Virus genome (UHGV): UHGV-0212970
DNA: 53,962 nucleotides
From: a virus
Reading direction: 5' to 3' (one strand)
The translations under genes were made by a program, and so were the position numbers. The notes beneath the pieces are model-generated. The model did no database searches and had not been told where the DNA came from. It saw only the letters and a list, made by a program, of their open reading frames with translations. This document shows positions 4,586-45,202 of the stretch, one piece after another; within the stretch, counting starts at the first letter, position 1, and each line of letters begins with the position of its first letter.

Positions 4586-4622
4586 TATGGTATTGCCTCC
4601 GGTTTACAAAATGGAATATTCA

Positions 4623-5126
4623 GGGTAAAGAAATACCGTGATTGCTATGAAAGTTATACATTCTTTCAGCTTCTTTTCTTGCTTTTACGGCATCATCAAA
4701 TGAGTCACCGTAATAAACGTATATTGTTTTCTTTTTCCCATCAGATCACCTTATACCTATTTGCGCACGCCATTTATTGGTTTTCTTGTTCCACGTAACG
4801 CCAACGCATCCGCTAGTATTACTTGATGGCATTGTTTTGTTTCTGTTATTCTCCTTCCTTGTCACCATCCTTAAGTTTTCGATTCTATCGTCACCAGGTA
4901 CATGATTTATGTGATCTATTTCCATTCCATCAGGAATAGGGCCGTTAAACATTTCCCAGATAATGCGGTGACGCCATGTGCAACAAATACCATTAACGCG
5001 TACAGTCCAATATCCGCGATAATGTTTACATCCAGCCACGCTACCTGCTTTTATTTTGTTATTTGCACGGTTACAAGACCAATATAGAACGCCGTCGCTA
5101 TATGTAAATAAATCATCCCACATCAT
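4623..5126 (-). CDS. HNH endonuclease with AP2-like C-terminal domain, reading frame interrupted by a stop codon near 4746-4748
   Basis: ORF track 4746..5228 (likely start at MMWDD, 5126) has HNH motif EIDHINH...NLRMVTRKEN; 41 further codons after the TGA encode the rest of an AP2-like domain (KKKTIYVYYGDSFDDAVKARKEAERMYNFHSNHG) matching the intact paralog at 32592..33083. Confidence 0.6.
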
Positions 5127-6243
5127 GACACCCCACCATTTCAGGCCTATATACAAAGCGACCAATTTCGCCATAATCAGGACTGTAAATGATAACCGCA
5201 GCGCAACGTTGCGATCTCCATCCTCCATTAGTTGAATAAGCGTCTTTGCCCGCTAACGTGCCGTGGTGTTCAACTATGCCTATAGATGATTCTGTTACTG
5301 ATTTATGGTGCAAATGTCCGACATGGACGTAAACATATTTCGACTTTCCGAAATCCTCCCGCCAGTCAGCTACGCAAGCAGCCAACAAATTTTCCGGCTT
5401 TTTGATAGTGTGCCCGTGGTGGTAAGCAAGGAATGTTTTGCCGTACTGTGTGTGGTGGACGATAGCAGGGGACACATCAACCGTCACGCGCGGTTCATCT
5501 TCGTAAAAAGCCGCCAGCGCCGCGCGTAGCCAAATCATGCCTGACTGATCGTGATTGCCTGATAACACCTGGATTTCAACATCCTTATGATTTAGTAACA
5601 TCTTCCCGACCGCACGCCGGACCGACCGGATCGCCACGTAAACCAGTTTTGCGTAGCGTGAATCGCAATCCAGGACGTGATTGCTTGATGGCGTCACTGG
5701 TAACAGGCCGTCAGTATGAAGCACATCACCGCCGAGAAGTAAAACAGCCTTTTCAGACATTGGCGCAGCGCCTACCGAGTAGTCGAAGAAATCATTTAGC
5801 ACACGTTCAGCGATCCCGGTGTCGTAGCTTTCGCCGCATTCAGCTTTATGAGCAAGCGCCCCGATATGTAGATCGAATACCGGATAAAGGGCCAGGCTTT
5901 TTTGGAAATCAATTTCCGGCACTGGCACGGCCTCCGCGCGTGGCATATCTTCCGTGAAAGCATCGCAAGCCGCTTGCATTAGCCTTTCCATTTCATCGCG
6001 ATCACGGGCTGTTTTAATCCAGCGCATAATCACATTGCCATCCTTATCGACGAGCAAAGACTCACCATTGACGCCAAAACCCGGTGCGCGGCGCGTGGAT
6101 ATTAAACCGCGTTTCGCCAACCGTGCGCCCAGGCGTTCGACGTTGCGTTTTGCCATGCCATATTTTTCTGCGATCTGTTTATACGTCAGACCGTTATTAT
6201 GTTCAGCGATTAACTGTTCATCGCTGATCTTTCTTTGTGACAT
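5113..6243 (-). CDS. Calcineurin-like metallophosphoesterase with N-terminal HTH
   Basis: 376 aa; motifs DLHIG, GGDVLH, GNHD, HHGH, GHLH; N-terminal HTH-like segment (GLTYKQIAEKYGMAKRNVERL). Confidence 0.65.
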   Translation of the reverse strand: MSQRKISDEQLIAEHNNGLTYKQIAEKYGMAKRNVERLGARLAKRGLISTRRAPGFGVNGESLLVDKDGNVIMRWIKTARDRDEMERLMQAACDAFTEDMPRAEAVPVPEIDFQKSLALYPVFDLHIGALAHKAECGESYDTGIAERVLNDFFDYSVGAAPMSEKAVLLLGGDVLHTDGLLPVTPSSNHVLDCDSRYAKLVYVAIRSVRRAVGKMLLNHKDVEIQVLSGNHDQSGMIWLRAALAAFYEDEPRVTVDVSPAIVHHTQYGKTFLAYHHGHTIKKPENLLAACVADWREDFGKSKYVYVHVGHLHHKSVTESSIGIVEHHGTLAGKDAYSTNGGWRSQRCAAVIIYSPDYGEIGRFVYRPEMVGCHDVG

Positions 6244-6395
6244 AACGTTAATTCCTCCGGTTTACAGAATGTATATTTATTTTCCGTAAAACGCGCTACA
6301 ACGCAAAATTCCACCGCGTAACCCATTTGTAAGGGTGCAGTGTCTTTTTTGCGCCAGAGGCGCTATCAGGTGGCTAATTTTCGATTTACAGACTG

Positions 6396-6506
6396 GTAGG
6401 TAGGTTATGGATTAACGAGAAGGTACAAACCGCCGAACAAAGCGACGTTAACAGCGATTACCGCAGCGATGGCAAAAGCCAGGGCGAAAACGTGTTTACC
6501 GTCCAT
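6396..6506 (-). CDS. Small hydrophobic peptide (about 36 aa)
   Basis: MDGKHVFALAFAIAAVIAVNVALFGGLYLLVNP; single predicted TM helix; below ORF-track cut-off. Confidence 0.3.
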
Positions 6507-6639
6507 TTTAAAATCCTCTCTGTAACGCTCTATAACGAGCTAAACCGCTAAAGATATGCAATCGTAGCACCATGCGTGTTTTAGCTCGCTGGCGAGGTTG
6601 TTTTGTGGGTAATTTTGGATTTTTGCGGATCGTGGTTGG

Positions 6640-7692
6640 TCAAAGAACGCCAGCGCGTGTATCACGTAGCGTTTTTGGTTTAAGCAGGAAATCAAGTGTC
6701 GCAGTAAAGCCATTGCCGAAGTAAAAATCTGAAGCCGTGTTTTTGAACGTTTCGAAGTAGGCGACAAAGCCGTTAATGCTTTTGTCTTTCAGGTAGTCAG
6801 TGAACGCATAGATCTTGCGTTCAAGATCCCGATCCAGTTCGGCAGGTGGTAACAGGCCGTCAAACGTGCTGTTAAATGCTTCCACCACGTCGGCAGCGTT
6901 TACAGTAGCTGATAGCTTGCGCCATTGTTCAGCATCAGCCAAATACCCATCAAACTTAGTTACCCGGCAAATGTTGATAGGCTTAGGTGTTCCACCACGG
7001 CTACGCCATTGCGTTAAAGCCCACTCAATCACTAATGTGATCTCATCCTCCGTATACGCTTTACGTGTTTTTGTTTCTGTCAGTAGTTCTACGAATGGCT
7101 TAGCATCACGACATTTGCATCCTGCCTTGTCGTTGTAGAAGGCAAGGCAACGCAATGCCGCTTCGTTTACGCCATCCTGATTGACCATTTTTTGTTCATT
7201 TTCGACAATACACGAAGTGTATATATCTTTTTCTCTTTCTTTTTCTACTTCTAATTCTAATTCATGACCCTTTCCTGACCCGGTCATGACCCTATCATGA
7301 CCTTTTGGTGTTGAATTGATTAACTTTTCTAATTTTAATTGCTCCTTCGCTGTGTTTATGGCGGCCCTGTAAGCGCTTTTAGAAGTCATTGATTGGTCCA
7401 GCCTTTTCAATAACTTTAAACAAGTTATGTGGCCTTGAGAACATTCAAACAAACCAATTTCGATGAAGTATTTCATTATTTCTTCTGTACGTTTTTCAGT
7501 AGATCCGACGTTTCGCGCAATTATTCTTGCGTCATGTCGTAGGTTAAAAGTTAGATTGTGCTGATCTACGTCATAAGTTATTAGTTCTAGGCAATACCAA
7601 TAAAGCCCGTACCCTTCCAGGCCATAATCTAATAAAACGTTTTGAAGTTTTTCATCGCGGTTCGCATCGCTATCATGCTTAAACCACTTCAT
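6640..7692 (-). CDS. Phage replisome organizer / replication initiation protein (DUF4373-like N-terminal domain)
   Basis: 350 aa; N-terminus MKWFKHDSDANRDEKLQNVLLDYGLEGYGLYWYCLELI matches the DUF4373 pattern as I recall it; sits upstream of the helicase. Confidence 0.6.
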   Translation of the reverse strand: MKWFKHDSDANRDEKLQNVLLDYGLEGYGLYWYCLELITYDVDQHNLTFNLRHDARIIARNVGSTEKRTEEIMKYFIEIGLFECSQGHITCLKLLKRLDQSMTSKSAYRAAINTAKEQLKLEKLINSTPKGHDRVMTGSGKGHELELEVEKEREKDIYTSCIVENEQKMVNQDGVNEAALRCLAFYNDKAGCKCRDAKPFVELLTETKTRKAYTEDEITLVIEWALTQWRSRGGTPKPINICRVTKFDGYLADAEQWRKLSATVNAADVVEAFNSTFDGLLPPAELDRDLERKIYAFTDYLKDKSINGFVAYFETFKNTASDFYFGNGFTATLDFLLKPKTLRDTRAGVL

Positions 7693-7695
7693 AGA

Positions 7696-7950
7696 TCATT
7701 CCTCCGGCAATGCAATGTCATAAATGTCGCCGTATTCGTCAGCGCGTTTAATGAATCCTTTGCGGATCAATGAATTTAATGCGTCAACAGCAGTATGCAG
7801 TGGCAGTTCGCACACTTTTGCGATCTCTTCGCGTGAAGCATGTGCGCGGCCTTTGTTGTCTGCCTTTTCTGCAAACGCAATTAAGACAAGTTTTTGGATC
7901 GGGCTGTTAAGTTTTACGTTCCATGCTTCATTCATCATGCGCATACTCAT
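7696..7950 (-). CDS. HTH DNA-binding protein, first gene of the leftward operon (Cro-like or replication-associated)
   Basis: 84 aa; winged-helix-like segment SREEIAKVCELPLHTAVDALNSLIRKGFIK; divergent from the repressor gene. Confidence 0.45.
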   Translation of the reverse strand: MSMRMMNEAWNVKLNSPIQKLVLIAFAEKADNKGRAHASREEIAKVCELPLHTAVDALNSLIRKGFIKRADEYGDIYDIALPEE

Positions 7951-8059
7951 CTTGTTTTTCTCCTATGGTTAGAGTGAACGCGCGGGCGGGCATCCCATTA
8001 GCATTAGATAGCAGTGACTGACCGCTCAACAGATCCCGCCGTTGCGTGATATTTGTTTT

Positions 8060-8092
8060 TCGCTTCGCAGCGACACCGGATTTTTAAAGAGC
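8060..8092 (-). promoter_or_regulatory. nutR-like antitermination site (boxA GCTCTTTAAAAA plus GNRA-loop hairpin) on the leftward transcript
   Basis: Minus-strand GCTCTTTAAAAA is 1 mismatch from the rrn/lambda boxA consensus; about 11 nt further along the transcript is hairpin uCGCU-GCGA-AGCGa. Confidence 0.4.
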
Positions 8093-8168
8093 TTAAGGTA
8101 AGTGCCTTTTGTGCCTTCCGTTATCTTTTTCTTTGCGTCTTTGCAAGTATGGCCTTACCTTGTCTGCA

Positions 8169-8196
8169 AGTTTACAAAATGGAATTTTAAGATCAA
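8169..8196 (-). promoter_or_regulatory. Candidate leftward early promoter (PR-like) overlapping motif copy TTTACAAAATGG
   Basis: Minus strand TTGATC-N16-TAAACT; CCATTTTG element lies in the spacer. Confidence 0.35.
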
Positions 8197-8220
8197 GGCT
8201 TAAAATACACGTTTTGTGAC

Positions 8221-8248
8221 TTGCATCAAACCTTTTGAGGTTATAGGG
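8221..8248 (+). promoter_or_regulatory. Candidate repressor-gene promoter (PRM-like)
   Basis: TTGCAT-N16-TATAGG ending about 7 nt before the cI-like ATG; would give a near-leaderless mRNA. Confidence 0.3.
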
Positions 8249-8255
8249 TAGCGAC

Positions 8256-8903
8256 ATGAAAACAAAATGGTATGACTTAGCAAAGCAGCTCATGCGGGCG
8301 CAGGGCATGAGTCAGGATTCACTCGCAGATCTCATGGGGATAACTAAAGGCGGCCTGTCACACTGGCTTAACGGTCGCCGCGAGCCAAATCTTGAAGATA
8401 TTGCGCGGATTATGCGGGCGCTTGGGCGTCGTCAGTTCACTGTTACACATGATGGTATGGTCATTGATGATTCTGTTTCTAATACACTTCAGGCCGCACC
8501 GCCGCGTGATTTAGGTAGTTACCCGGTTATTGACTGGAAGGACACAGTAAACAATATGGATGACACAAGGCGATCAGCATTACCACACGTTACGACTAGC
8601 GTTATTTGTTCAGATGATAGTTACTGGCTGGTTGCCAAAGGTGAATCAATGAACGCGCCGCAGGGGTTAAGCATCCCGGCGGGGACGATGATACTTGTTG
8701 ACCCGCACGCGCCAGCTATTGACGGCAAACTGGTTATAGCCCAGCTTGAGGAAGGGCAGATACCGACGTTTAAACAGTTGATTATTGATGGAGGTCAAAG
8801 GCTTTTACGTTCGCTGAATCCGCTGTATCCGCCAATCCCTATGAATCCAGAATCAAAAATTATAGGCGTGGTGGTTGATGCGAAGATCGTAAACCTGCCA
8901 TAA
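8256..8903 (+). CDS. CI-like prophage repressor (XRE-family HTH plus S24 LexA-like peptidase domain)
   Basis: 215 aa; N-terminal HTH (SQDSLADLMGITKGGLSHWLNGRR), C-terminal S24 motifs (VAKGESM ... TFKQL). Confidence 0.85.
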   Translation: MKTKWYDLAKQLMRAQGMSQDSLADLMGITKGGLSHWLNGRREPNLEDIARIMRALGRRQFTVTHDGMVIDDSVSNTLQAAPPRDLGSYPVIDWKDTVNNMDDTRRSALPHVTTSVICSDDSYWLVAKGESMNAPQGLSIPAGTMILVDPHAPAIDGKLVIAQLEEGQIPTFKQLIIDGGQRLLRSLNPLYPPIPMNPESKIIGVVVDAKIVNLP

Positions 8904-8908
8904 ACATT

Positions 8909-8934
8909 AGCCGCCGAATGGCGGCTTTTCTTTG
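8909..8934 (+). terminator. Rho-independent terminator after the repressor gene
   Basis: Hairpin AGCCGCC-GAAT-GGCGGCT followed by TTTTCTTT. Confidence 0.7.
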
Positions 8935-9012
8935 CCTGGAAAACACCAAAACGTAAACAGAAAACGTTATTTATTATTTAAATATCAATGGTATATAAAT
9001 ATTTTAAAAAAG

Positions 9013-9024
9013 TATACAAAATGG
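9013..9024 (-). promoter_or_regulatory. Copy of the recurrent 12-nt element (TATACAAAATGG) abutting the -35 of the rightward early promoter
   Basis: Exact motif copy; its reverse complement reads CCATTTTGTATACT (TG plus -10-like hexamer) facing the repressor 3' end. Confidence 0.35.
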
Positions 9025-9025
9025 A

Positions 9026-9054
9026 TTGACTCGGTGTTTTACGGGGCGTATATT
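9026..9054 (+). promoter_or_regulatory. Sigma70-type early rightward promoter (PL-like)
   Basis: TTGACT-N17-TATATT with AT-rich upstream region; followed by a roughly 340-nt untranslated leader. Confidence 0.6.
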
Positions 9055-9308
9055 GCGAATCAAAGGAAGGGCGCAGGTAACAAAAGCAACTTCCTGGCAC
9101 TTTAAAAATCAGGCTTAACACCTTGTCAACCGTGGAGTAACTCCCCGATGGGGGACCGAAAGCGGCACTGATAACAAGGCGCATGGGGTGTTTAAAGCGT
9201 TACATCCCCCACGAAACCGCACGCAAGGCGACGAGTCAGCTTGCTTGGAGTGAGCAAGGTCACGCCGGGAACGGCGATGATTGCGGGATTAGTTGAAAGA
9301 TGTTAAGC

Positions 9309-9347
9309 CGCTCATTAACAATCTGGTCAGCCGCTGGAAGTGCGGCA
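9309..9347 (+). promoter_or_regulatory. nutL-like antitermination site (boxA CGCTCATTAACAA plus boxB-like hairpin)
   Basis: GCTCATTAACAA is 1 mismatch from boxA GCTCTTTAACAA; 12 nt downstream hairpin GCCGC-UGGAAGU-GCGGC with purine-rich loop; just upstream of the N-like gene. Confidence 0.45.
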
Positions 9348-9402
9348 ATTAACGAAGATGATTTTTTATTAAGTATCATCAAGGATATACGGAGATCAGA
9401 TT

Positions 9403-9693: not shown

Positions 9694-9722
9694 TACAAAA
9701 TGTAAACATCCGGAGATGACAT

Positions 9723-12873: not shown

Positions 12874-12886
12874 AAGGATAAATATC

Positions 12887-13507: not shown

Positions 13508-13605
13508 CCGAGTGATTCCGATTACATAAATATACATTATGTATTGTGATCGCATATCCGTTTTGTAAGCCAAAATCAAAAGGTTTACGGTGCGGAGGAA
13601 GCGAA

Positions 13606-17069: not shown

Positions 17070-17091
17070 AGTTTACAAAATGGCGTCATTG

Positions 17092-17107
17092 TGTGATGAA
17101 TGTCACA
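17092..17107. promoter_or_regulatory. Perfect CRP-consensus palindrome TGTGA-N6-TCACA
   Basis: TGTGATGAATGTCACA lies between an inverted pair of the 12-nt element, centred about 60 nt upstream of the TG-TATACT element at 17139-17152. Confidence 0.35.
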
Positions 17108-17138
17108 TAATGGCGCTTTACACTTTGTTAGCACGTAT

Positions 17139-17152
17139 CCATTTTGTATACT
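17139..17152 (+). promoter_or_regulatory. Promoter-like element CCATTTTGTATACT (extended -10 type)
   Basis: Member of the recurrent element family; precedes the 17229 small gene and NinG. Confidence 0.35.
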
Positions 17153-17228
17153 TCAAGCAAACAAAATGCTCTTTAAAAATCCGGCAGCGCTGAAATGCGT
17201 AGAAATCACCTGAAAAGGAGAGAGCATT

Positions 17229-22724: not shown

Positions 22725-22911
22725 AAATGATTGGCTGAAAAACCGATGGGATTGTCGCCTAAATTGCCGTTTATCGTCGTGACTGATACTTACGGTCACT
22801 TATGGTATGCGGAGCCGCGCCTGGGAGTTGGTCGCTACGTTGTCCGTAGTTCGGACGGGATGATGATGGTTACTTTCACAGAAGAAACATAATGTAATCT
22901 ACATCACGATG

Positions 22912-22955
22912 TATACAAAATGGCATTGTTTCGGCGGTGCCATTTTGTTATAAAG
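22912..22955. promoter_or_regulatory. Inverted pair of the 12-nt element (TATACAAAATGG - 16 nt - CCATTTTGTTATAAA)
   Basis: Right arm gives TG-n-TATAAA extended -10 about 35 nt upstream of the 22990 gene. Confidence 0.35.
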
Positions 22956-30330: not shown

Positions 30331-31701
30331 ATGCCATCCAATTTAGAATTGGCGGTTAATGCTGCCTTGTCTCAACGCCAGGCGGCCTTTGCCCGCTATG
30401 CAGCCGCTAACCCATTCTCGATGGGTATTGATGCAAAACGTGATGCTGCGTGGAGTGAATACGGATTCAAAGAAGAAATCACCTATGCCGATTTATACAA
30501 ACTGTATCGTCGCGGTGGTATCGCTCACGGTGCTATTGAGAAGATCATTACTACGTGCTGGCGCACCAGGCCAACGCTGATTGAAGGTACGGAAGACGAG
30601 AAAGCGGAAAAGGAAACTTCGTGGGAAAGAGAAATCAAAAAACAATTTGATAATCGTTTCTGGCGCGTCATAGCTGAATGCGATCGCCGCCGCCTCATCG
30701 GTCGTTATGCTGGACTGTTAATTCACGTCAGGGATAACAAGCCGTGGGATCAGCCAGTAACAAAAGGCGTAGGCATTGCCAAATTCACCCCCGTATGGGC
30801 TGGTGCTCTTACACCGAAGGACTTCGAAGAAAACCAGGATAAAGAAAACTATGGCCTGCCTACATGGTGGGAATACAAGGAGCGCATTAACAGTAAGACC
30901 ATAGCAAGAAAGATACATCCGGATCGCATATTTATCTTCGGTGATTATTCTGATGATGCCATCGCTTTCCTTGAGCCGTCCTATAACGCATTCGTTTCGC
31001 TGGAGAAAGTGGAAGGCGGCAGCGGTGAATCATTCCTGAAAAACGCAGCACGTCAACTGGCTATCTCGTTCGATAAAGAAATTGATTTCCGTTCTCTGGC
31101 TGCAACATACGGTTGCGACGTTACAGAGCTACGCGAAAAATTCAATGAAGCGGCAGAGGATATAAATAAAGGTAATGATGTGATGATGGCATTACAGGGG
31201 GCTACCGTTAGCCCGCTGGTTACTGCCGTAGCAGATCCTTCCGCTACCTATGACGTCAACCTGCAAACCGCAGCCGCTGGTATCGATATTCCAACGCGTA
31301 TTCTTGTTGGGAATCAGCAGGGCGAACGCGCATCAACCGAAGACCTCCGCTACTTCAATAACCGCTGCATGACCCGCCGTGAGGAAATAGGAAGCGAGCT
31401 TGAAGAACTATTCCGCAAGATGGCAGATCTCCGCCTTATCGGTATGCCAGTAGACGTATCTGTACTGTGGGACGACCTTAACGCCATGACAAAAGCAGAG
31501 CTACTCGACGCGGCATACAAAATGGCACAAATCAATCAGGCATGTCTCGCTACTGGTGAGGAAATATTCAGCGGTGACGAGATCCGCGAAGCTGCCGGAT
31601 ACGATGGCCCGGCTAGTGAGGTAGAACTGGAAGAGGAAAACGATGATGAAAGTGAAGAAGATAATCAGGCGAATACCTCCAGCCGCGATAATGCCATCTA
31701 A
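30331..31701 (+). CDS. Portal protein
   Basis: ORF track 30310..31701, likely ATG 30331 after SD AGGAG; about 456 aa with acidic C-terminus; positioned between TerL and MuF-like gene. Confidence 0.75.
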   Translation: MPSNLELAVNAALSQRQAAFARYAAANPFSMGIDAKRDAAWSEYGFKEEITYADLYKLYRRGGIAHGAIEKIITTCWRTRPTLIEGTEDEKAEKETSWEREIKKQFDNRFWRVIAECDRRRLIGRYAGLLIHVRDNKPWDQPVTKGVGIAKFTPVWAGALTPKDFEENQDKENYGLPTWWEYKERINSKTIARKIHPDRIFIFGDYSDDAIAFLEPSYNAFVSLEKVEGGSGESFLKNAARQLAISFDKEIDFRSLAATYGCDVTELREKFNEAAEDINKGNDVMMALQGATVSPLVTAVADPSATYDVNLQTAAAGIDIPTRILVGNQQGERASTEDLRYFNNRCMTRREEIGSELEELFRKMADLRLIGMPVDVSVLWDDLNAMTKAELLDAAYKMAQINQACLATGEEIFSGDEIREAAGYDGPASEVELEEENDDESEEDNQANTSSRDNAI

Positions 31702-38963: not shown

Positions 38964-39338
38964 CTAATTGAAATCTTTAATTGCTGTACCTGGTGAACTG
39001 TGTGTGATTGTATTGTATACAGACTTTGCCTTACTGCGATCTTTCCATTCTTTTAGGATGCAGTTATCAAACTTTGCGATAACCCTTGAAGGGGATAATT
39101 CTTCAACATCCATGTAAGTAAATCCTATCGTGCTGGTTACTGAATACCATACGTGATAACTATAATTACCGTCATGCTCGATTCTTTGTGGTTCCCCCAT
39201 TATTTTATTCACTTGCTCACAAGTCATTCCAACTTGCAATTTTTTATCAGCTAACTTAACGAAATCAGTTGATCTTGCGCACCCTGTAAGAGCTAAAGCC
39301 ATAACACCAATGAGAGCCGCTTTGATTATGTTTTTCAT
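38964..39338 (-). CDS. Lipoprotein (moron, 124 aa)
   Basis: Signal peptide with lipobox LTGC; opposite strand inside tail cluster; AT-rich. Confidence 0.6.
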   Translation of the reverse strand: MKNIIKAALIGVMALALTGCARSTDFVKLADKKLQVGMTCEQVNKIMGEPQRIEHDGNYSYHVWYSVTSTIGFTYMDVEELSPSRVIAKFDNCILKEWKDRSKAKSVYNTITHSSPGTAIKDFN

Positions 39339-39348
39339 GATTTACCCC

Positions 39349-40008
39349 TTAATTCCAGTTGCAAGCGTTTTTCACTTTGTCGATGTGGTTATAAAGACCA
39401 TCAATGTTAAACACTGCTTTCTCAATGTCGCCAGCTTCCGGCACTACTTCAATGATGAATTGTTTTTCGTTAACCATTTTTTTAATCATTGGGATGGCTT
39501 TTTTGCCATCCCATAATCCAAGAGCTTTATAATTAGTTGACCGCCCCCACTCAGTAGCTACAGCTTTGTGAACGCCGATCCGGTAGTTAATATAAGTAGT
39601 GTCCCCGGCGTCAGTTACATGGTGTGACCATGCTACGAACATTTTTGTTTTATTACCCTGGCAAGCGATTGTTAATACCGGTTTATTCTTATCCTGTGCC
39701 TTCAGTGTCGGGAAAGCATCAAGACTTCCGCTGAATTGTTCTGCTTTCACAAAAAGGAATACGTTTTTTGCGTCCTGCATATCATCTTTTCTTTCAACTA
39801 CAAGCCACTGTTTACCAGCATTTTCTTTTTCTAACTGTGCATCGTATGCGGCTTGTTTTGCTTGTTGTTCTGCAAGCCATTTAGCATTTTTCTCTGCTAA
39901 TGCTTGTTGTTCTTGATTGGTCACTATAGGCGCTTTTTCATTATCCTCATTGCAACCAACCAGACCCAATACCGCCGCAATCATTGCCACTTTTGCTAAC
40001 CGTTTCAT
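39349..40008 (-). CDS. Lipoprotein (moron, 219 aa)
   Basis: Signal peptide with lipobox LVGC; Gln/Ala-rich coiled segment then globular domain. Confidence 0.6.
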   Translation of the reverse strand: MKRLAKVAMIAAVLGLVGCNEDNEKAPIVTNQEQQALAEKNAKWLAEQQAKQAAYDAQLEKENAGKQWLVVERKDDMQDAKNVFLFVKAEQFSGSLDAFPTLKAQDKNKPVLTIACQGNKTKMFVAWSHHVTDAGDTTYINYRIGVHKAVATEWGRSTNYKALGLWDGKKAIPMIKKMVNEKQFIIEVVPEAGDIEKAVFNIDGLYNHIDKVKNACNWN

Positions 40009-40055
40009 AACCCACCACGCTAACTTGATTTACTGACCTTTCCCTTTGGCTTACT

Positions 40056-40099
40056 TATACAAAATGGAGTCGTTGAAGTAAAGCCATTTTGTATAAAAT
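40056..40099. promoter_or_regulatory. Divergent promoter-like pair built from inverted copies of the 12-nt element
   Basis: TATACAAAATGG - 16 nt - CCATTTTGTATAAAAT; each arm gives TG plus TATAA(G/A) -10-like box, facing the lipoprotein genes leftward and tape measure rightward. Confidence 0.4.
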
Positions 40100-40135
40100 A
40101 GATACACAGATCACATTTTTGCATGAGGTTAAATC

Positions 40136-42481
40136 ATGGCTACCAGTGTAGGTACAATTTATTACGAAGTTGATGCAAAAACTGGTCAACTTCTCGTTGC
40201 ACAACGACAGGCAGACCAGGCCTTTGACCGTATAGAGCGCGGCGCAAAACAGGCTGACCGCCAGGTAAACACCCTGAAAACATCCATCAAAGCACTGACC
40301 AGGGTTATCCATTTGCTAATTGCTGCCGAGGCTGTGCGCCAATTTATGGATATGGCGGAGCAAGCAAAAATGCTTCGCGTAAAAATCAAAATGCTTACGG
40401 GCGATGCGGAGTCCGCCGGACGGGTTTTCGACGGCCTGAAAGCAATATCCAGGGAAACGGGGCAAAGCCTGAAGGATACTGGCGAGCTATGGCAAGGTCT
40501 TGCCATCTCACTGAAGAACACGTCAGCTACGGAAGGGCAATTACTTAACCTGGTTGGCACTATTCAGAAAATGGGGGCGTTAGGCGGCGCATCAGCGGAA
40601 CAGATGTCTAACTCTATGCGCCAGTTCCGCCAGTCTATAGACGGCGGCGTGCTGCGTGCTGAAGAATTTAACAGCCTACTTGAAAACACCCCGACCATCG
40701 TACAGACAATGGCCCGTCAGATGGGGTTATCTATGGGCCAGTTCCGCGCCGAAATGCTGGACGGCAAGATCACGGCAGAAAGGATGGTTAACGCAATCCA
40801 GGCGGCTACGCAGGAAACAAACGAGCAGTTTGCTCAGTTGCCGCGCACATCCGGCATGGCTATCAATGAGCTTAAAGTCGAAATCATGGGTCTTGTTGAA
40901 CAGCTTGATGATCTTTTCGGCGTATCAGATGGCGTAGTCTCAGCTATCGACTTAATCACAAAAGGCGTTAAGGGGTTAGGTGAGGGCGCTAAATTCGCTA
41001 AAACCTGCTTCGATACACTCAAAACGGCTGGTGGCGAATTCATCGACATGTTTGATGATGTGGCTGTGAAGGCTGGCGAGGTGGCAGAGAAGATCATCGC
41101 AATGGTGACGCCAATCAAGGCACTTATGGACGCCTACAAATGGATGAAGGAGGTTGTAGATAAGCGCAAGGAAGAACTAAATAGCAACAATGAGAAGAAA
41201 TTCGGCCCTACAGTCGGTAAAGTCATGACTTTTGCAAACGACATTAAAAACGCGACTGCCGCTTATGATGAGTTTATGCAGAAACAGGCAGAAGCCAACG
41301 ACGGCAAGATCACCGGATTCGACAAGCCAGTTGATAAGCCTAAAAAGGGTAAGAAGACTGGCAGCAAGAAAAGCAAAGAGGATACGCTTGGTGACAAGGG
41401 TATAAGCGTTTCTGACCAGTACAATAAAGACGCCGCCGCCATGCGCAAAGCGTTAGAGAACGGCAAGGCCATTGATGCTGCATTCGCCCAGGGTAAAATC
41501 ACCCTCCTTGAGTACCGCGCCGCGCAAAAAGGGATAGGTAAGGAACTGAAGGAAGAATTAGCCCAAATTCCGGTAGATGAATTGCGTGATAAATGGGCGC
41601 AAATAGTAAGCCCGATGAATCAGCTTAAAGGCGAGGTTGACCCTATTCAGCAGGTACAAAATGAATGGGCCGTCCGTAAGCAAATGCTTATCGACCTGGG
41701 CGCTACCGAAGCGCAACAGAAACAGGCATTGTTAGCCTATGAGCAACAGATCCGCGATCTGAAATGGGAGCAATGGCAGGCGCAAAGCCAGACAAACGGC
41801 CTGATCGGTGATTGCGTTAATGGCCTTAAAGGTGGCATGAGCAATGCGCTTGTCGGCCTGCTTAACGGTACTCAATCATTGAGCGATGTTTTTGCTAACT
41901 TAGGGAGCAATATACTAGGGAATATTGGCAACAGACTTTCTGATATAGCAGCCGACTGGATAGCAGATCAGATCATGATGGAAACACAAAGCAAGGCAAC
42001 TCAAGCAAGTACAACGGCAAGCGCGGTTGCCGCTCAGGAAAGCATCGCGGCGGCGGCGGCCCCGGCGGCGGCGGCAACGGCTGCATCAACTGGCGGTAGC
42101 TGGGCGGCGGCTGGTTCGGCTGCGCTCACTGCGATCATGTCGCTGGCTACGTCAATTTTCGGCGGCGGTCGCTTTAATGGTGGTAGCGTCATTGGTGGCA
42201 ATATGTACCGCGTAGGGGAACACAACAGGCCGGAGCTATTCCAGACGTCTAACGGCAACCAATATATGATCCCAGGCGAGAACGGCAGGGTTATTCCTGG
42301 TCGTGATATTGGCGGCGGTGGCGGTTTTAGTATGCCTGTCAGTATCAGTATTCAAACCACAAACGGATTTAGCGAAGAAGACAGCCGCAGACTTGAATCA
42401 ACAATGGAACGTGTAGCAATGAAGATGATAACAAGGGAATCGCAAAGACCTGGCGGGATGTTGCAACCGCGCCGCAAATAA
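40136..42481 (+). CDS. Tail tape measure protein
   Basis: 781 aa; long helical protein with Ala/Gly-rich TM-like region near C-terminus; lambda H-like position. Confidence 0.85.
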   Translation: MATSVGTIYYEVDAKTGQLLVAQRQADQAFDRIERGAKQADRQVNTLKTSIKALTRVIHLLIAAEAVRQFMDMAEQAKMLRVKIKMLTGDAESAGRVFDGLKAISRETGQSLKDTGELWQGLAISLKNTSATEGQLLNLVGTIQKMGALGGASAEQMSNSMRQFRQSIDGGVLRAEEFNSLLENTPTIVQTMARQMGLSMGQFRAEMLDGKITAERMVNAIQAATQETNEQFAQLPRTSGMAINELKVEIMGLVEQLDDLFGVSDGVVSAIDLITKGVKGLGEGAKFAKTCFDTLKTAGGEFIDMFDDVAVKAGEVAEKIIAMVTPIKALMDAYKWMKEVVDKRKEELNSNNEKKFGPTVGKVMTFANDIKNATAAYDEFMQKQAEANDGKITGFDKPVDKPKKGKKTGSKKSKEDTLGDKGISVSDQYNKDAAAMRKALENGKAIDAAFAQGKITLLEYRAAQKGIGKELKEELAQIPVDELRDKWAQIVSPMNQLKGEVDPIQQVQNEWAVRKQMLIDLGATEAQQKQALLAYEQQIRDLKWEQWQAQSQTNGLIGDCVNGLKGGMSNALVGLLNGTQSLSDVFANLGSNILGNIGNRLSDIAADWIADQIMMETQSKATQASTTASAVAAQESIAAAAAPAAAATAASTGGSWAAAGSAALTAIMSLATSIFGGGRFNGGSVIGGNMYRVGEHNRPELFQTSNGNQYMIPGENGRVIPGRDIGGGGGFSMPVSISIQTTNGFSEEDSRRLESTMERVAMKMITRESQRPGGMLQPRRK

Positions 42482-42486
42482 CACTA

Positions 42487-42512
42487 AGGCCGCTATAAGC
42501 GGCCTTTATTTT
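42487..42512 (+). terminator. Rho-independent terminator after tape measure gene
   Basis: AGGCCGC-TATA-AGCGGCCT followed by TTATTTT. Confidence 0.65.
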
Positions 42513-42798
42513 ACATGGTGAGAATATAAATCAAACAGCACAGGAATACAGGTGCGGCGAAGTCGCAAACGCTAGCCATATTCCATGCTTTAGGTAATAA
42601 TCCGCCATACCACGGCATTCTTTCCCGTTTTCCACCGCAAAATTCCGCTATGTAACGATATTCAGCCTGCGTGTGTTCGCGTGCAAAAAAGAATGTACAT
42701 CCAATCAGGCCGCCAGTGAGATAATCACCAGTAAGCAGGCCGATAACAACCTGCATAGCCGCCGCAGCCAGTGCGTGACCAATGACGGTTAAATCCAT
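42511..42798 (-). CDS. Small membrane protein (moron)
   Basis: 95 aa with 3 hydrophobic segments; opposite strand. Confidence 0.45.
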   Translation of the reverse strand: MDLTVIGHALAAAAMQVVIGLLTGDYLTGGLIGCTFFFAREHTQAEYRYIAEFCGGKRERMPWYGGLLPKAWNMASVCDFAAPVFLCCLIYILTM

Positions 42799-42800
42799 TG

Positions 42801-42986
42801 TTAATCCTCCTGATCGTTCTCAAATGTGCCATCTATAAATTTTTGAAGCCCGGCGATAAGTTGCGTCGCCTGCGATTTGTCAATTACGAGGATGTCAGTC
42901 CCCATGAGTTCGGTTATCCATAGCCGACCATCCTCATCAAGATCTAACCTAACTCCGTAACATAACTCTGTTTCGTCAATAATCAT
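42801..42986 (-). CDS. Hypothetical acidic protein (moron)
   Basis: 61 aa; SD GGAGG. Confidence 0.4.
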   Translation of the reverse strand: MIIDETELCYGVRLDLDEDGRLWITELMGTDILVIDKSQATQLIAGLQKFIDGTFENDQED

Positions 42987-43095
42987 TTTTCCTCCTATAA
43001 TCTTCCGTTACGTGCGACGTAACCACTGCCGAACATCACCAACCAAATATTCCAGATCTCCCGCCAGGTGAATTTATCGTCCTCCATGTCCCACC

Positions 43096-43350
43096 TCACT
43101 TATGCACCCCTTTGACTCCACAGTGCCTGTTATATTCCAGATGATCGATAATTAACCAGACTTTTAGGTCTTCGCTAAACAGCCTCCAGTCAGGGTTGAT
43201 GTCGAATTTAAAGCCATAACCATCACGTAACTTTTTGGGGCGCGCCTCTTTCTTCAAAAATGCTTTAAGCAGTTCCTTCCCTTTCTTGATAGTCCTGTCT
43301 TGTGCGTTTTTCTGTACTTTCAGGTTTTTATCAATCGCTACCAGTTTCAT
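43096..43350 (-). CDS. Hypothetical basic protein (moron; possible toxin-like partner of upstream small gene)
   Basis: 84 aa, Lys-rich; SD GGGGTGAG. Confidence 0.45.
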   Translation of the reverse strand: MKLVAIDKNLKVQKNAQDRTIKKGKELLKAFLKKEARPKKLRDGYGFKFDINPDWRLFSEDLKVWLIIDHLEYNRHCGVKGVHK

Positions 43351-43367
43351 AACTCACCCCATCATCC

Positions 43368-43523
43368 TTAGTTGAGTGCCTTCAGGAAGAAATCACGGTA
43401 TTCATCTTCTTTTGCATTCATCATGAATTGAGCGTATTTGAATGCGTCGTCGAACCCCTTAACGATTGCTATTTCCACTTGTTCGAATGCGTTGTTCAGC
43501 ATTACCACTACATAGCGTTTCAT
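43368..43523 (-). CDS. Small protein (moron, about 51 aa)
   Basis: ORF track 43368..43598; internal ATG at 43523 has strong SD GGAGGCC. Confidence 0.4.
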   Translation of the reverse strand: MKRYVVVMLNNAFEQVEIAIVKGFDDAFKYAQFMMNAKEDEYRDFFLKALN

Positions 43524-43594
43524 TTTTGGCCTCCTTCGTTGGTACTGCTTTTCTTCTTGCTTTCTATATACATCTTGTTGCGTACTATGTGAAG

Positions 43595-43675
43595 CCATTT
43601 TGTAAACTAGCTATAATCATTGTGATTAAGATCTCATTTTTCGCGTAGAGGCGCGTAAAGATATATACAAAATGT
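43595..43675. promoter_or_regulatory. Divergent promoter-like pair of the 12-nt element (CCATTTTGTAAA ... about 56 nt ... ATATACAAAATG)
   Basis: Left copy faces rightward with downstream TATAAT; right copy on minus strand reads CCATTTTGTATATAT facing the moron genes. Confidence 0.4.
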
Positions 43676-43691
43676 AACTTATGGGGGTTTT

Positions 43692-44045
43692 ATGCCGGAA
43701 GTGTTCAGATGGACGCCGCAACGAAGCTACAGCGTGACCAGGGAGCCGGACGTATCAGTTGTTAAGCTGGGCGATGGTTATGAGCAAAGACAGGTTAAAG
43801 GTATCAACCCGTTACTTGATAGCTACACCATGGTGTTTAAGGGCAGTAGCGCCGGATGTGGTGATGGTGAAAACGTAGCAATCCAGGCGGAAGCATTCTT
43901 GAGGGCGCGCGGCGCGGTCGAGGCTTTTTACTGGTCGCCGTCAATGGATAACGTGCAAAGGCTTTTTGTTTGCCGTAGCTGGAGCATGACTAAAGACGGA
44001 CCGCTATACACGCTAAACGCAACATTTGAGCAAGTTATTAATTAG
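43692..44045 (+). CDS. M: Minor tail protein M
   Basis: 117 aa; FRW ... GDGYEQR ... FEQVIN resembles lambda gpM as I recall it. Confidence 0.75.
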   Translation: MPEVFRWTPQRSYSVTREPDVSVVKLGDGYEQRQVKGINPLLDSYTMVFKGSSAGCGDGENVAIQAEAFLRARGAVEAFYWSPSMDNVQRLFVCRSWSMTKDGPLYTLNATFEQVIN

Positions 44046-44055
44046 GGGAGGGGAT

Positions 44056-44238
44056 ATGCCTTATTTTTGTGTAGTGGAGCGCACTGGCGCTTTTACATTG
44101 TTTGCCGACTATGAAATTAATGATCTAACTGTACAAGCTGATAACGGCGAGACGTGGTATCTTCATGATATGGGTGATGGATATATCGGCTGTACGACTT
44201 GGGATGGCAAAGAAGTAGCATTTCTATCCTACGATTAA
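44056..44238 (+). CDS. Hypothetical protein
   Basis: 60-aa ORF after SD GGGGAGGGG. Confidence 0.4.
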   Translation: MPYFCVVERTGAFTLFADYEINDLTVQADNGETWYLHDMGDGYIGCTTWDGKEVAFLSYD

Positions 44239-44244
44239 AAAACA

Positions 44245-44264
44245 CCCCGCCACGGCGGGGTTTA
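44245..44264. terminator. Bidirectional terminator between convergent genes
   Basis: AAAAAACA-CCCCGC-CACG-GCGGGG-TTTA; same hairpin as at 51627. Confidence 0.6.
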
Positions 44265-44337
44265 TAGTGTCGATAGCAGAATGCATAACAATCCAATAAT
44301 GATAATGATCATTTCCAGAACGTAATGTTCGCACATC

Positions 44338-44586
44338 TCATAACGCCCCCTTCAAATATGTCAATCCCTTATCAGTGACGAATGAATGATTAACCTGGTT
44401 TTCATCCGTCATGATGATGAATAACTTTTCCTGTAGGTATTTCGCTTTCGGGTACAGCGTTAAACAGACCTGGTACAGTATCCCGCGCTCAATCAGCAAA
44501 TCAATAAATTCGTGCTCATGATAACCGATGAGGCGGGCGGCCTGTTTCAGCGTGTACACATAATCGCCGTGATTGCGCCGCCCCAT
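44338..44586 (-). CDS. Hypothetical protein (moron)
   Basis: 82-aa ORF. Confidence 0.45.
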   Translation of the reverse strand: MGRRNHGDYVYTLKQAARLIGYHEHEFIDLLIERGILYQVCLTLYPKAKYLQEKLFIIMTDENQVNHSFVTDKGLTYLKGAL

Positions 44587-44595
44587 GTTGCCGCC

Positions 44596-44943
44596 TTATT
44601 TATCGAATGCGGCCAGGTTATCTATGCAGAAGTCTTTCGCAGCTTTTTCGTATTCGCGTTTTGCTTCTGGATTGTCAGCCGGGAAGCCTTTTGCGTGTAT
44701 TTCACCAGGGCAAGCCTGATCCATAGAATCAGCAAATTCAACATTGACGTTAAAGTTAATATCTTTCGGATTCATGTTTTCCACCTCATCAATTATCTGC
44801 ACCGGATTAGCAGCATATTTCACTGGATGGCCTAAACTACATTCAAGAATCCTTCCTTCTTCCAAAGCTGCCTCTTCGCTATCAAATAATCCGAAACACT
44901 CCTTGCAACCACTTAACCACACATCAAGACTATATTTTTGCAT
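44596..44943 (-). CDS. Hypothetical protein (moron)
   Basis: 115-aa ORF. Confidence 0.5.
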   Translation of the reverse strand: MQKYSLDVWLSGCKECFGLFDSEEAALEEGRILECSLGHPVKYAANPVQIIDEVENMNPKDINFNVNVEFADSMDQACPGEIHAKGFPADNPEAKREYEKAAKDFCIDNLAAFDK

Positions 44944-44955
44944 TTCGTTAACCTC

Positions 44956-45111
44956 TCATTTGACAAGTTCGATCCTGTACCCCAAAACGCGTTCGTCTTC
45001 AGCAAGTAAAAGCGCGTCAGTAAGTGCCTCGCCTTCATCCTTATACAGAGCTACAGTCATTTTTCTGCCATCAGTCAGGAATACCGTCAACCTCCACACC
45101 TTATCAGCCAT
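44956..45111 (-). CDS. Small protein (moron, about 51 aa)
   Basis: ORF track 44956..45186; internal ATG at 45111 with SD GGAGGTG. Confidence 0.35.
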   Translation of the reverse strand: MADKVWRLTVFLTDGRKMTVALYKDEGEALTDALLLAEDERVLGYRIELVK

Positions 45112-45125
45112 CTCACACCTCCGCG

Positions 45126-45202
45126 CCATTTTGTTAACTGCGCTTCCGTTTGAGTAAAATATACATATTGTATAAACCGCGATCAATCCATTTTGGTATG
45201 AT
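45126..45202 (+). promoter_or_regulatory. Two direct copies of the 12-nt element with -10-like boxes upstream of gene L
   Basis: CCATTTTGTTAA at 45126; TTGAGT-N15-TATAAA at 45150-45176; CCATTTTGGTATGAT at 45188. Confidence 0.3.

Follow-up and report, generated by a model that had tools for sequence, protein, structure and literature searches.

The question raised by this locus is what a short element, present in about 15 copies between the genes of a temperate E. coli phage, is doing there. The window, by which we mean the whole 53,962-nt stretch of virus genome UHGV-0212970, belongs to the mEpimmI (mEp021-like) group of coliphages. The element has not been described before.

Occurrence and conservation of the element

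A first-pass annotation had pointed to a recurrent 12-nt element at gene junctions, and counting confirmed that its enrichment over shuffled sequence is real. Over both strands of the whole window, CCATTTTGTAWA is matched exactly nine times where 0.03 would be expected (4603-, 8171-, 9013-, 17072-, 17139+, 22912-, 40056-, 40084+ and 43595+), and no other 9- to 12-mer is as over-represented. Allowing up to one mismatch gave 12 matches against 1.19 expected and added 43664-, 45126+ and 31514-. At two mismatches we found 37 matches against 15 expected, and such copies were accepted only with supporting context (6261-, 13558+, 22940+ and 45163+); a variant with a one-base insertion, CCATTTTGgTATGAT, lies at 45188 on the plus strand. 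The one-mismatch copy CCATTTTGTATG (31514-31525, minus) falls within the portal gene. It probably reflects chance or coding constraint rather than membership of the system, a single copy of this kind being about the chance level for one-mismatch matches. Among the degenerate copies suggested earlier, that at about 13559 is the two-mismatch copy at 13558, and that at about 8262 is present at 8259, where it overlaps the start codon of the repressor; none was found near 1538, and a match at 1648 sits in a small coding ORF.

The repeat is longer than the 12 nt first proposed: the conserved block spans 14 nt, K-CCATTTTGTAWA-C. It shows neither dyad symmetry within itself nor a conserved symmetric partner. 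Copies are almost exclusively intergenic in the window, and in the annotated relative mEp021, 11 of 13 copies fall in the intergenic 12.6% of the genome (P = 8e-9). The element occupies the same junctions in every close relative and is absent from relatives with 65-68% tail-protein identity. Its carriers all belong to a single clade, which is at the same time a single immunity group.

Promoter signals around the element

Judged from the sequence, it is rather probable that the element represents the -10 region and proximal spacer of a clade-specific sigma-70-type promoter family with at least ten members, which would be read by host RNA polymerase. The -10 hexamer would be TAWAC(T) with a TG abutting it, CCATTTT would form the promoter-proximal spacer, and a weak TTGnnn -35 would lie 16 nt upstream of the -10. 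When 13 copies were aligned as paralogues, positions -13 to -9 read TTGAC. Matches to TTGACA peak at a single offset, 16 nt before T9A10W11A12C13, where 36 of 78 were counted and the null gave 20 +/- 3.9. A generic sigma-70 matrix placed 8 of 14 copies in the top 0.65% of all window positions, and two of them, at PL (the leftward early promoter) and at 17139, in the top 0.03%; TTGTTA-16-TATACT at 17125-17152 was also called independently by a simple promoter scan. A promoter, as already proposed in the first-pass annotation, is therefore the best supported reading, given the -35 offset, the matrix scores, the nut sites and the minus-strand tail blocks. The label "extended -10" applies loosely, with a true TGn in the 22940 and 45188 variants and a TG that directly abuts TAWA elsewhere.

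Several features count against the promoter reading. T at -7 occurs in only about 5 of 11 copies, TG lies one base nearer the hexamer than in canonical TGn promoters, and the near-invariant CCATTTT at -20 to -14 is unaccounted for by sigma-70 contacts; conservation covers CCATTTT while the last two -10 positions are free among copies. In addition, the copies at 9013, 17072 and 22912, plus one in relatives, are antisense to gene 3' ends.

The early region and the nut sites

The exact copy at 8171-8182 (minus) would be the core of the early promoter PL, upstream of nutL. Its sigma-70 score is in the top 0.02%, with a -35 TTGATC (complement of 8191-8196), a 16-nt spacer, a -10 TAAACT (8174-8169) and a predicted start at about 8162. 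The nutL boxA (8081-8092, minus) follows about 80 nt downstream of the copy. On the other side lies a CRP-consensus-like palindrome, TGTGACTTGCATCAAA (8215-8230), centred 40.5 nt upstream of the copy and about -60.5 from the predicted start, whose half-sites are conserved and whose centre is variable among relatives.

At the immunity switch, the canonical rightward promoter PR (TTGACT 9026-9031, 17 nt, TATATT 9049-9054) has the best sigma-70 score in the window and precedes the nutR1 boxA at 9097-9108. An exact copy reading leftward (9013-9024, minus) stands 1 nt from its -35, at -48 to -37 of PR. A reversed copy lies exactly 1 nt away from the -35 in both of the two best canonical promoters of the window, PR and 45186-45158 (minus).

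Two copies had been placed directly before the Shine-Dalgarno sequences of the helicase and phosphoesterase genes, and the distance is indeed 2 nt in both cases: an exact copy at 4603-4614 (minus) before the helicase gene (3164-4585, minus), and a degenerate one, ACATTCTGTAAA (6261-6272, minus), before the exonuclease/phosphoesterase gene (5113-6243, minus). They share TGTAAACCGGAGG-N10-ATG and score poorly in the sigma-70 matrix, and the 4603 copy has no good -35 and no palindrome. Since a start 7-9 nt downstream would remove the Shine-Dalgarno sequence, these two copies speak against the promoter reading. HNH genes are inserted beside the 4603 copy in some genomes only; in relatives without the insertion, the TAA of this copy is the stop codon of the exonuclease gene.

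Further rightward, the degenerate copy CCGTTTTGTAAG (13558-13569, plus), which reads CCGTTTTGTAAAC in mEp021 and mEp515, is preceded by a TTGTGA -35; the centre of a CRP-like site at 13511-13526 lies 39.5 nt upstream of the copy. At the next junction, an exact copy (17072-17083, minus) begins 3 nt past the methyltransferase stop codon and points antisense into that gene, and a palindrome with the perfect CRP core consensus, TGTGATGAATGTCACA (17092-17107), overlaps its -35 region. The exact copy at 17139-17150 (plus) would form a rightward promoter core (TTGTTA 17125-17130, 16 nt, TATACT 17147-17152; top 0.03%), with the palindrome at about -59.5 to -61.5, and the nutR2 boxA (17168-17179) begins 17 nt past the copy. 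Three nut sites at these positions are given in the published description (PMC11893012), and two of the three, nutL and nutR2, follow shortly after the forward copies at 8171 and 17139, respectively. The 17139 copy may act as an internal rightward promoter directly before nutR2, feeding the Q operon; if this promoter is real, the need for a third nut site would be explained. Counting against a role of the 17092 palindrome in promoter regulation, it doubles as a 13-bp hairpin and predicted terminator; the annotation of mEp021 lists this hairpin, with the palindrome as its stem, as predicted terminator t4/TERM_4.

Two-way modules and CRP-like palindromes

Four junctions have back-to-back modules with predicted starts 57-58 bp apart. 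The module at 22893-22951 comprises a CRP-like site (22893-22908), a copy at 22912-22923 (minus), a 16-nt spacer and the forward variant CCATTTTGTTAT at 22940-22951 (plus), whose TGtTATAAA is a true extended -10. The spacers of 16 nt at 22912/22940 and 40056/40084 and of 55 nt at 17072/17139 measured as previously claimed. The back-to-back promoters would be too close for two polymerases to bind simultaneously, so that a module would be expected to transcribe only one way at any moment. With this arrangement the A4 tract of the reversed copy falls at -43 to -40 of its partner, the position of a UP-element proximal subsite.

Matches to TGTGA-N6-TCACA with at most one mismatch number four in the window against 1.67 expected, and all four adjoin copies; at up to two mismatches there is no window-wide enrichment (24 against 22.5 expected). 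At 8171, 13558, 17139 and 22940 the palindrome centre lies 39.5-40.5 nt upstream of copy position 1, where about 0.014 would be expected by chance, and a spacing of about 40 nt also occurs at 40056 (minus) in most relatives. Because the intervening sequences are unrelated, the spacing appears constrained rather than inherited; among relatives, the half-sites of the palindromes are conserved and their centres variable. Given that the -35 elements are weak, several members may carry an activator-type palindrome at the class I position, with its centre some 60 bp ahead of the predicted start. In inverted pairs one palindrome would also cover the start of the opposing promoter, and a palindrome-binding protein would thereby bias the firing direction. 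Putative CRP-consensus palindromes about 40 nt upstream of four copies, at the class I position and over opposing predicted starts, are a new observation. Their true ligand could be a phage-encoded dimer, for example a MarR-like early protein. Compact two-way promoter modules with a CRP-type regulator site are most likely a frequent build of the element.

Tail cluster and accessory blocks

Upstream of the tape-measure gene (start 40136), the module at 40056-40116 has copies at 40056-40067 (minus) and 40084-40095 (plus) with a 16-nt spacer, the plus copy preceding the gene, and a TGTGAT half-palindrome (complement of 40101-40116). The minus copy most likely drives the minus-strand block 38964-40008. 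A 40-bp core of this junction is invariant in 56 loci, and similarity on the accessory-gene side is lost some 25 nt past the copy, the pattern expected if cargo is exchanged while the promoter stays in place.

The pair at 43595-43675 was described as inverted with a spacer of about 55 nt; it measures 57 nt and is face-to-face rather than back-to-back. It consists of a plus copy (43595-43606), TATAAT (43612-43617), a CRP-like site (43621-43636) and a minus copy (43664-43675) that reads ACATTTTGTATA and most likely drives the minus block 42511-43598. The TATAAT is invariant and lies 5 nt downstream of the 43595 copy; it could be the real -10 there, putting the element in the spacer, against the promoter reading. 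Before tail gene L (45126-45222) stand CCATTTTGTTAA (45126-45137, plus), ACATATTGTATA (45163-45174, plus), the canonical minus promoter TTGATC-17-TATATT (45186-45158) with the second-best sigma-70 score in the window, the one-base-insertion variant (45188-45202, plus; TGgTATGAT), 1 nt from the -35 of that promoter, and a CRP-like site (45207-45222).

Terminators in the tail cluster (bidirectional at 38941-57 and 42486-506, minus-strand at 44244-61) close the minus blocks, whose opposite ends carry element copies. The idea that copies flank every opposite-strand accessory (moron) block is thus correct for the promoter-proximal end, the other ends carrying terminators. A promoter scan found no canonical promoter in 40009-40135 or 43599-43691, and the minus-strand tail blocks, which end at bidirectional terminators, have no other promoter candidate. 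Further copies would start each opposite-strand accessory block and then restart the tail genes after it.

Alternative explanations

The 14-mer might instead be the site of a dedicated asymmetric DNA-binding factor of phage or host, or a private promoter class read by a sigma-like or sigma-appropriating factor, which we regard as possible and rather doubtful. By analogy with the C1 operators of phage P1, such a factor overlapping many -10s could give one protein genome-wide control, an equally tentative idea. It would account for the conservation of CCATTTT, which sigma-70 does not read base-specifically, and for the freedom of the last two -10 positions. Since copies run both with and against local transcription, the element would act at the DNA level, and its position relative to -10s varies (in the spacer at 43595, at -48 to -37 of PR and the 45186 promoter). 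Its limitation to one clade and immunity group fits as well, as do several early proteins of 180-224 aa without a recognisable family, one with a weak MarR-like match, and the TGTA shared with the phiEco32 consensus (PMC12276001). However, neither a sigma-like nor a P1 C1-like protein turned up in three independent annotations or among the proteins that were scanned. At the onset of infection PL has to work with host polymerase that is still unmodified, and a plain promoter would already be expected to show both the matrix scores and a correctly spaced -35 signal.

It had also been suggested that the element is an operator of the lambda-CI-like immunity repressor (Rep021 homologue, 8256-8903), which we consider unlikely; silencing of PL, PR, the antirepressor-block promoter and internal tail promoters in the lysogen by this route seems similarly improbable. 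The 16-mer AAGTWTACAAAATGGA is the longest sequence common to the PL and PR regions, the element covers the PL -10 and adjoins the -35 both in PR and in the promoter of the block encoding a KilAC antirepressor-like protein, and the third, degenerate copy overlaps the repressor start codon. All element carriers have the same repressor (91-100% identity), as this reading expects, and for that reason covariation cannot decide it. Lambda CI binds as a dimer to 17-bp pseudo-symmetric sites. The repressor here aligns full-length with it (3bdn, E = 1e-19) and would need such a site, so the 14-mer, lacking dyad symmetry and a symmetric partner, is a poor candidate. Tandem operator arrays are absent, PL offers better dyads (ATTTTAAG-N7-CTTAAAAT at 8184-8206 over the -35, and ACTTGCA repeats), and sites 2 nt before a Shine-Dalgarno sequence or at accessory-gene promoters are hard to rationalise. 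T4-type phages have promoter-stem-loop cassettes that serve as homology cassettes, and we think it very unlikely that the copies here are likewise short cassettes for accessory-gene exchange at module boundaries, with promoter activity secondary. The homology break at the tape-measure junction, the differing cargo genes of relatives and the sporadic HNH genes beside the 4603 copy agree with exchange, but 12-14 nt would be a very short stretch for homologous recombination to use, the PL, PR and nutR2 copies are not at variable boundaries, and the fixed distances to the -35 signal and palindrome suggest polymerase geometry.

Comparison with known systems

As a host-polymerase promoter family, the element resembles the T4 and T5 early promoters, which are phage-wide conserved families of this kind, in its many near-identical cores per genome, conservation beyond the two hexamers and a T-rich spacer ending in TG beside the -10. 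It differs in its weak -35, a conserved block at -21 to -8 and a free downstream half of the -10, and in serving a temperate phage, including PL and accessory-gene blocks. With extended -10 (TGn) sigma-70 promoters it shares the invariant G before a TA-initial hexamer and the poor -35, and the 22940 and 45188 variants are textbook examples, whereas in other copies TG joins the hexamer with no base in between, and many lack T at -7. P1 C1 operators are likewise asymmetric, of similar length, genome-wide, promoter-overlapping and sometimes in inverted pairs, yet no C1-like protein was found here and the immunity repressor is lambda-CI-like. The phiEco32 gp36 promoters have AATGTA centred at -11.5 (PMC12276001). 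They resemble the present family in having a single conserved element near -11 with TGTA and no -35, but they require a phage sigma factor, none being detected here, and the upstream part differs.

In class I CRP-dependent promoters of the lac P1 type, CRP is centred at -61.5. The putative sites here, TGTGA-N6-TCACA (perfect at 17092) at -59.5 to -61.5 before a weak -35, are similar, except that they double as start-overlapping sites for the opposing promoter. The lambda PR/PRM pair, with starts 82 bp apart, is a comparable divergent switch in which a single bound protein can activate one promoter while blocking the other; in the present phage the predicted starts are 57-58 bp apart, the symmetric arms would be the -10 regions themselves, and the module recurs four times.

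Identification and conservation of the element

We found that the recurrent 12-mer CCATTTTGTAWA, which the first-pass annotation had picked out at operon and moron junctions, has nine exact matches over both strands, compared with 0.03 expected from dinucleotide-preserving shuffles. The element and its sub-words are also the most over-represented 9- to 12-mers of the window. The motif enrichment against shuffled sequence that had been proposed as a check was run and bears the repeat out, with 12 matches in the window at one mismatch or fewer versus 1.19 expected. At two mismatches or fewer there were 37 matches versus 15 expected, so copies with two mismatches were trusted only with supporting context. 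Alignment of 13 copies, each in its own orientation, gave a conserved block of 14 nt, K-CCATTTTGTAWA-C, in which C2, A3, T4, T5, T7, G8 and T9 are invariant among the copies of the window. In the annotated relative mEp021, 11 of the 13 copies lie in the intergenic 12.6% of the genome (P = 8e-9). The positions first listed for the copies were generally right, but nothing was found at 1538, where a degenerate copy had been noted, 43595 and 43664 form a face-to-face pair with a 57-nt spacer, 31514 is a copy within coding DNA, of the kind predicted by chance, and 45188 is a variant with a one-base insertion. By every statistical and comparative criterion that sequence makes available, the element is real and functional. 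It is also previously undescribed, and a full-text literature search for the sequence matched only unrelated primers. Another repeat, (C/T)GGCCTGTTACC, occurs four times (364, 2585, 5699 and 6848, minus strand) and encodes (D/N)GLLP in three minus-strand genes that are unrelated to one another; as chance alone should give, by a rough estimate, about one 12-mer present three times, this repeat is probably not meaningful.

The window shares 86-89% identity with the temperate E. coli siphophages mEp021, mEp515, mEp010, mEp013, mEp044, mEp554 and MagusPhagus, which were described in 2025 as the 'mEpimmI' group and are reportedly as common as lambdoid phages in human gut samples (PMC11893012). That paper, the only one on the group, covers the repressor Rep021, the N-like antiterminator Gp17, three nut sites and the terminators t1-t5, and mentions neither promoters nor the element; start sites are reported in no paper on this phage group. 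Copies occur at the same positions in mEp021, mEp515 and MagusPhagus, and the element is present at the tail junctions of the IMG/VR relatives with a tail-tube protein identity of at least 81%, a set made up of those whose fetched DNA reaches these junctions. A diverged version was sought in 33 relatives or loci with 65-68% tail-tube identity, which had no comparable repeat and, in 20 kb, no copy apart from a single one-mismatch match in two of them. A search for relatives based on the helicase was uninformative, because this gene is a mosaic module common to lambdoid phages. Of 5426 complete E. coli genomes, 29 contain such a prophage, and these include no standard model strain. All 42 fetched immunity regions encode the same repressor, with 91-100% identity, and the element and the repressor are therefore inseparable by covariation.

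Promoter-like features of the element

On balance, we think it rather likely that a clade-specific family of promoters has the element as its core and is combined with CRP-type sites in one-way and two-way modules. Over the 13 copies, the consensus at positions -13 to -9, counted from the element, is TTGAC, and matches to TTGACA peak at that one offset (36 of 78 summed over the 13 copies, versus a null of 20 +/- 3.9), a second peak being the reversed partner in inverted pairs. A weak but position-specific -35 lies 16 nt upstream of T9A10W11A12C13N14, within the 16-18 nt between -35 and -10 of sigma-70 promoters. With a generic sigma-70 matrix, eight of 14 copies fell in the top 0.65% of all positions, and the leftward early copy PL (8171, minus) and the 17139 copy fell in the top 0.03%; a separate promoter scan called TTGTTA-16-TATACT at 17125-17152. 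The proposal that every copy is an extended -10 promoter was borne out only in part: TGn is present only in 22940 and 45188, and in 11 of 13 copies the TG directly abuts T9A10 instead of standing at -15/-14. A shifted register (hexamer AWACNN) restores TGn and costs the A at -11 in the TATA copies. In the unshifted register, 11 of 13 copies have the A at -11, and about 5 of 11 have the T at -7.

The positions of the early copies are consistent with such a role. Copy 8171 reads TTGATC-16-TAAACT, with nutL (boxA 8081-8092, minus strand) about 80 nt downstream, and the canonical rightward promoter PR, TTGACT-17-TATATT at 9026-9054, precedes nutR1 (boxA 9097-9108, plus strand). The boxA of nutR2, GCTCTTTAAAAA at 17168-17179 on the plus strand, starts 17 nt after the promoter-type copy 17139. 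All three match the published nut positions (PMC11893012). With as many promoters as nut sites, three of each, the 'extra' site would belong to a promoter of its own, which suggests that nutR2 serves an internal promoter rather than read-through from PR, and the element promoters would thus explain this unusual third site. We infer that transcripts from this promoter would need Gp17 to pass the downstream terminators toward Q.

In the tail cluster, every minus-strand block starts at a copy and stops at a terminator, namely the bidirectional terminators at 38941-57 and 42486-506 and the minus-strand terminator at 44244-61. No canonical promoter was found in the junctions 40009-40135 and 43599-43691. 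At the tape-measure junction, formed by copies 40056(-) and 40084(+), a 40-bp core is invariant over 56 loci (31 distinct sequences), and on the accessory-gene side the sequences are unrelated from about 25 nt past the copy; one fixed start region precedes varying cargo. The accessory blocks at 38964-40008 and 44338-44586 (minus strand) encode VasI/TagO-like (type VI secretion-associated), small BamE-like and KilAC antirepressor-like proteins, and this cargo varies among relatives with the promoter module constant. Copy 43595 has a consensus TATAAT 5 nt downstream (43612-43617), invariant across 52 loci, which may serve as the actual -10 of this copy or belong to the second promoter of a tandem pair.

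Back-to-back modules and CRP-type palindromes

Several copies are placed back to back with a second promoter. The reversed copy 9013-9024 stops 1 nt short of the PR -35, and the variant 45188 likewise stops 1 nt short of the -35 of the minus-strand promoter 45186-45158; these two partner promoters have the two best sigma-70 scores of the entire window. The 16-nt spacer of the inverted copies equals 1 + 6 + 9 nt, so that this arrangement recurs there with element-type promoters in both directions. Four modules (9013/PR, 22912/22940, 40056/40084 and 45186(-)/45188(+)) have predicted starts separated by 57-58 bp, and, judged from known polymerase footprints, two polymerases presumably could not occupy both promoters of a module at once. 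The reversed copy also places an A4 tract at -43 to -40 of the partner promoter. The proximal subsite of the UP element is AAAAAARNR at -46 to -38, where PR carries TACAAAATG from the reversed copy, matching this consensus at 7 of 9 positions with N counted; the promoter 45186-45158 has the same UP-like geometry with a one-base variant. Such an A tract could add a mutual upstream effect between the partners.

Palindromes resembling the CRP site, TGTGA-N6-TCACA, were found beside the copies. At one mismatch or fewer there were four matches versus 1.67 expected, and all four adjoin copies: 17092-17107 has a perfect 10/10 core, and 8215-8230, 43621-43636 and 45207-45222 have 9/10. Cores of 8/10 lie at 13511-13526 and 22893-22908, and a half-site lies on the complement of 40101-40116. 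These sites carry the CRP core consensus, and the extended form GTGAT-N4-ATCAC is also present; at two mismatches or fewer the pattern has no window-wide enrichment. At 8171(-), 13558(+), 17139(+) and 22940(+), element position 1 follows the palindrome centre by 39.5-40.5 nt, for which the chance expectation from the window-wide match density is about 0.014 copies, and across the clade the minus copy at the tape-measure junction has the same offset. Of 1067 element copies scanned, 75 (34 distinct contexts) had a palindrome at -40.5 and 20 (11 contexts) at -39.5, a few of the latter contexts being two-mismatch matches and not promoter copies. Between palindrome and element, these promoters are unrelated in sequence, and orthologues conserve the half-sites with variable central bases, which argues for a constrained protein site and not a recent duplication. 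The palindrome at 17092 is also the stem of a hairpin annotated as the predicted terminator t4.

If the -10 is taken as positions 9-14 and the start as 7-9 nt later, the palindrome centre falls at -59.5 to -61.5. Class I CRP sites are positioned near -61.5 or helical turns further upstream. For 22912(-), 40084(+) and 45188(+), and likewise for 43595(+) if the TATAAT at 43612-17 is its -10, one of these palindromes or an equivalent one lies at about +2.5 to +6.5; palindrome 45207 lies at -63.5 of the canonical minus promoter 45186-45158. Because a palindrome stands upstream of one promoter and over the start of the opposing one, one bound dimer would activate the former and block the latter. 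Host CRP would be the simplest candidate for the ligand, and a phage dimer such as a MarR-like early protein is a possible alternative. GATC occurs in several palindromes, which could be modulated by methylation, given that the phage has a gene for a Dam-like methyltransferase. The literature search brought up no study of CRP sites in early promoters of temperate phages.

As a promoter core, a single conserved sequence would locate most mEpimmI transcription units at once. The palindromes suggest that the host catabolite state (CRP-cAMP) may be wired into early, Q-operon and accessory-gene promoters. In addition, the compact 40-bp palindromic two-way modules could be a natural test bed for promoter competition and could provide small bidirectional parts for synthetic biology.

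Alternative explanations and comparison with known systems

Some features misfit a plain promoter, among them the TG that abuts the hexamer in all but the 22940 and 45188 variants and the T at -7 that fewer than half of the copies have. The main unexplained one is the near-invariant CCATTTT, for which sigma-70 contacts do not account. Copies 9013, 17072 and 22912, and one in relatives, point antisense into gene 3' ends; 9013 (TATACT) and 17072 (TAAACT) have the best -10 hexamers, and each is followed on the minus strand, after about 100 nt, by a terminator-like hairpin. Copy 9013(-) faces the bidirectional terminator 8909-8926, away from PR, and would yield a non-coding RNA of about 100 nt (8905-9004, minus strand) just past the repressor stop codon. 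This RNA is predicted to fold only modestly better than shuffled sequence (z = -2.4), largely owing to the terminator hairpin. Copy 17072 is arranged similarly, with a hairpin at 16981-16957. Copies 4603 and 6261, 2 nt before a strong Shine-Dalgarno, score poorly and have neither a -35 nor a palindrome, and a transcription start there would remove the ribosome-binding site. These two copies have TGTAAACCGGAGG-N10-ATG in common. An inserted HNH endonuclease gene separates the exonuclease gene from the helicase gene here (region 4586-4745) and in mEp021; the insertion is absent from MagusPhagus and many metagenome relatives, and in relatives that lack it the TAA of the 4603-type copy (L110 7493-7504) is the exonuclease stop codon. 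Taken together, the misfits leave room for a dedicated binding factor.

The immunity repressor, which the first-pass annotation had put forward as a ligand, is very improbable in this role. A 16-mer is common to the PL and PR regions and the element overlies the PL -10, as an operator might. However, the repressor (8256-8903) is a full-length homologue of lambda CI, and K-CCATTTTGTAWA-C has neither the dyad nor the conserved flank of a pseudo-symmetric site of about 17 bp. Nor are there tandem arrays: PL has one copy, at its -10, and PR has one, upstream of its -35. PL offers better dyads, a perfect palindrome ATTTTAAG-N7-CTTAAAAT at 8184-8206, centred on the PL -35, and three ACTTGCA repeats (8143-8149, 8165-8171 and 8219-8225), and these are better candidates for the operator than the 12-mer. 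The first gene of the PL operon (7696-7950, minus strand) encodes the HTH_36 N-terminal part of a replication-initiator-like protein, not Cro, and beside the repressor gene there was no recognisable Cro-like gene. That the element serves chiefly as a recombination cassette where modules meet is unlikely at a length of 12-14 nt. An RNA-level element (translational operator, processing site or sRNA target) was rejected, as copies precede Shine-Dalgarno sequences in both orientations, forward copies would sit upstream of their own transcripts, and Rfam gave no match. An intrinsic terminator was likewise rejected, with a hairpin only in the 22912/22940 and 17072 contexts and none at single copies. 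Reading the element as a -35 (TTGTAA/TTGTAT) was rejected too, as it has no -10 at 16-18 nt, except at 45126 (TTGTTA-18-TAAAAT) and possibly 9013. The look-alikes LexA box, IHF, Tus/Ter core, TyrR box, sigma-32 -10 and 434-type ACAA-N6-TTGT were dropped because most copies lack their defining bases or symmetry.

Among known systems, the dispersed operators of P1 C1 differ in their cognate repressor: the one here is an HTH_3 plus Peptidase_S24 protein of the lambda-CI type, and none of the three annotations contains a C1-like product. We consider it unlikely, if less so than the repressor operator, that the 14-mer is the site of a dedicated factor (a private promoter class or operator network) which together with the palindromes forms 40-bp exclusive two-way switches. 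Candidates for such a factor would be a monomeric global repressor or an as yet unrecognised phage protein that works as a sigma-like or appropriating subunit, and the switches would choose between accessory-gene and tail-gene (or antisense) transcription by host cAMP state. A factor reading CCATTTT would represent a new regulator class for temperate coliphages. Neither a phage sigma factor nor a phage RNA polymerase was found in the three annotations or the 20 proteins scanned, and no sigma-like domain appeared in either set. An asymmetric factor or a private sigma-like specificity may still read the element, and the closest precedent found is gp36 of phiEco32, whose promoters have AATGTA centred at -11.5 (PMC12276001).
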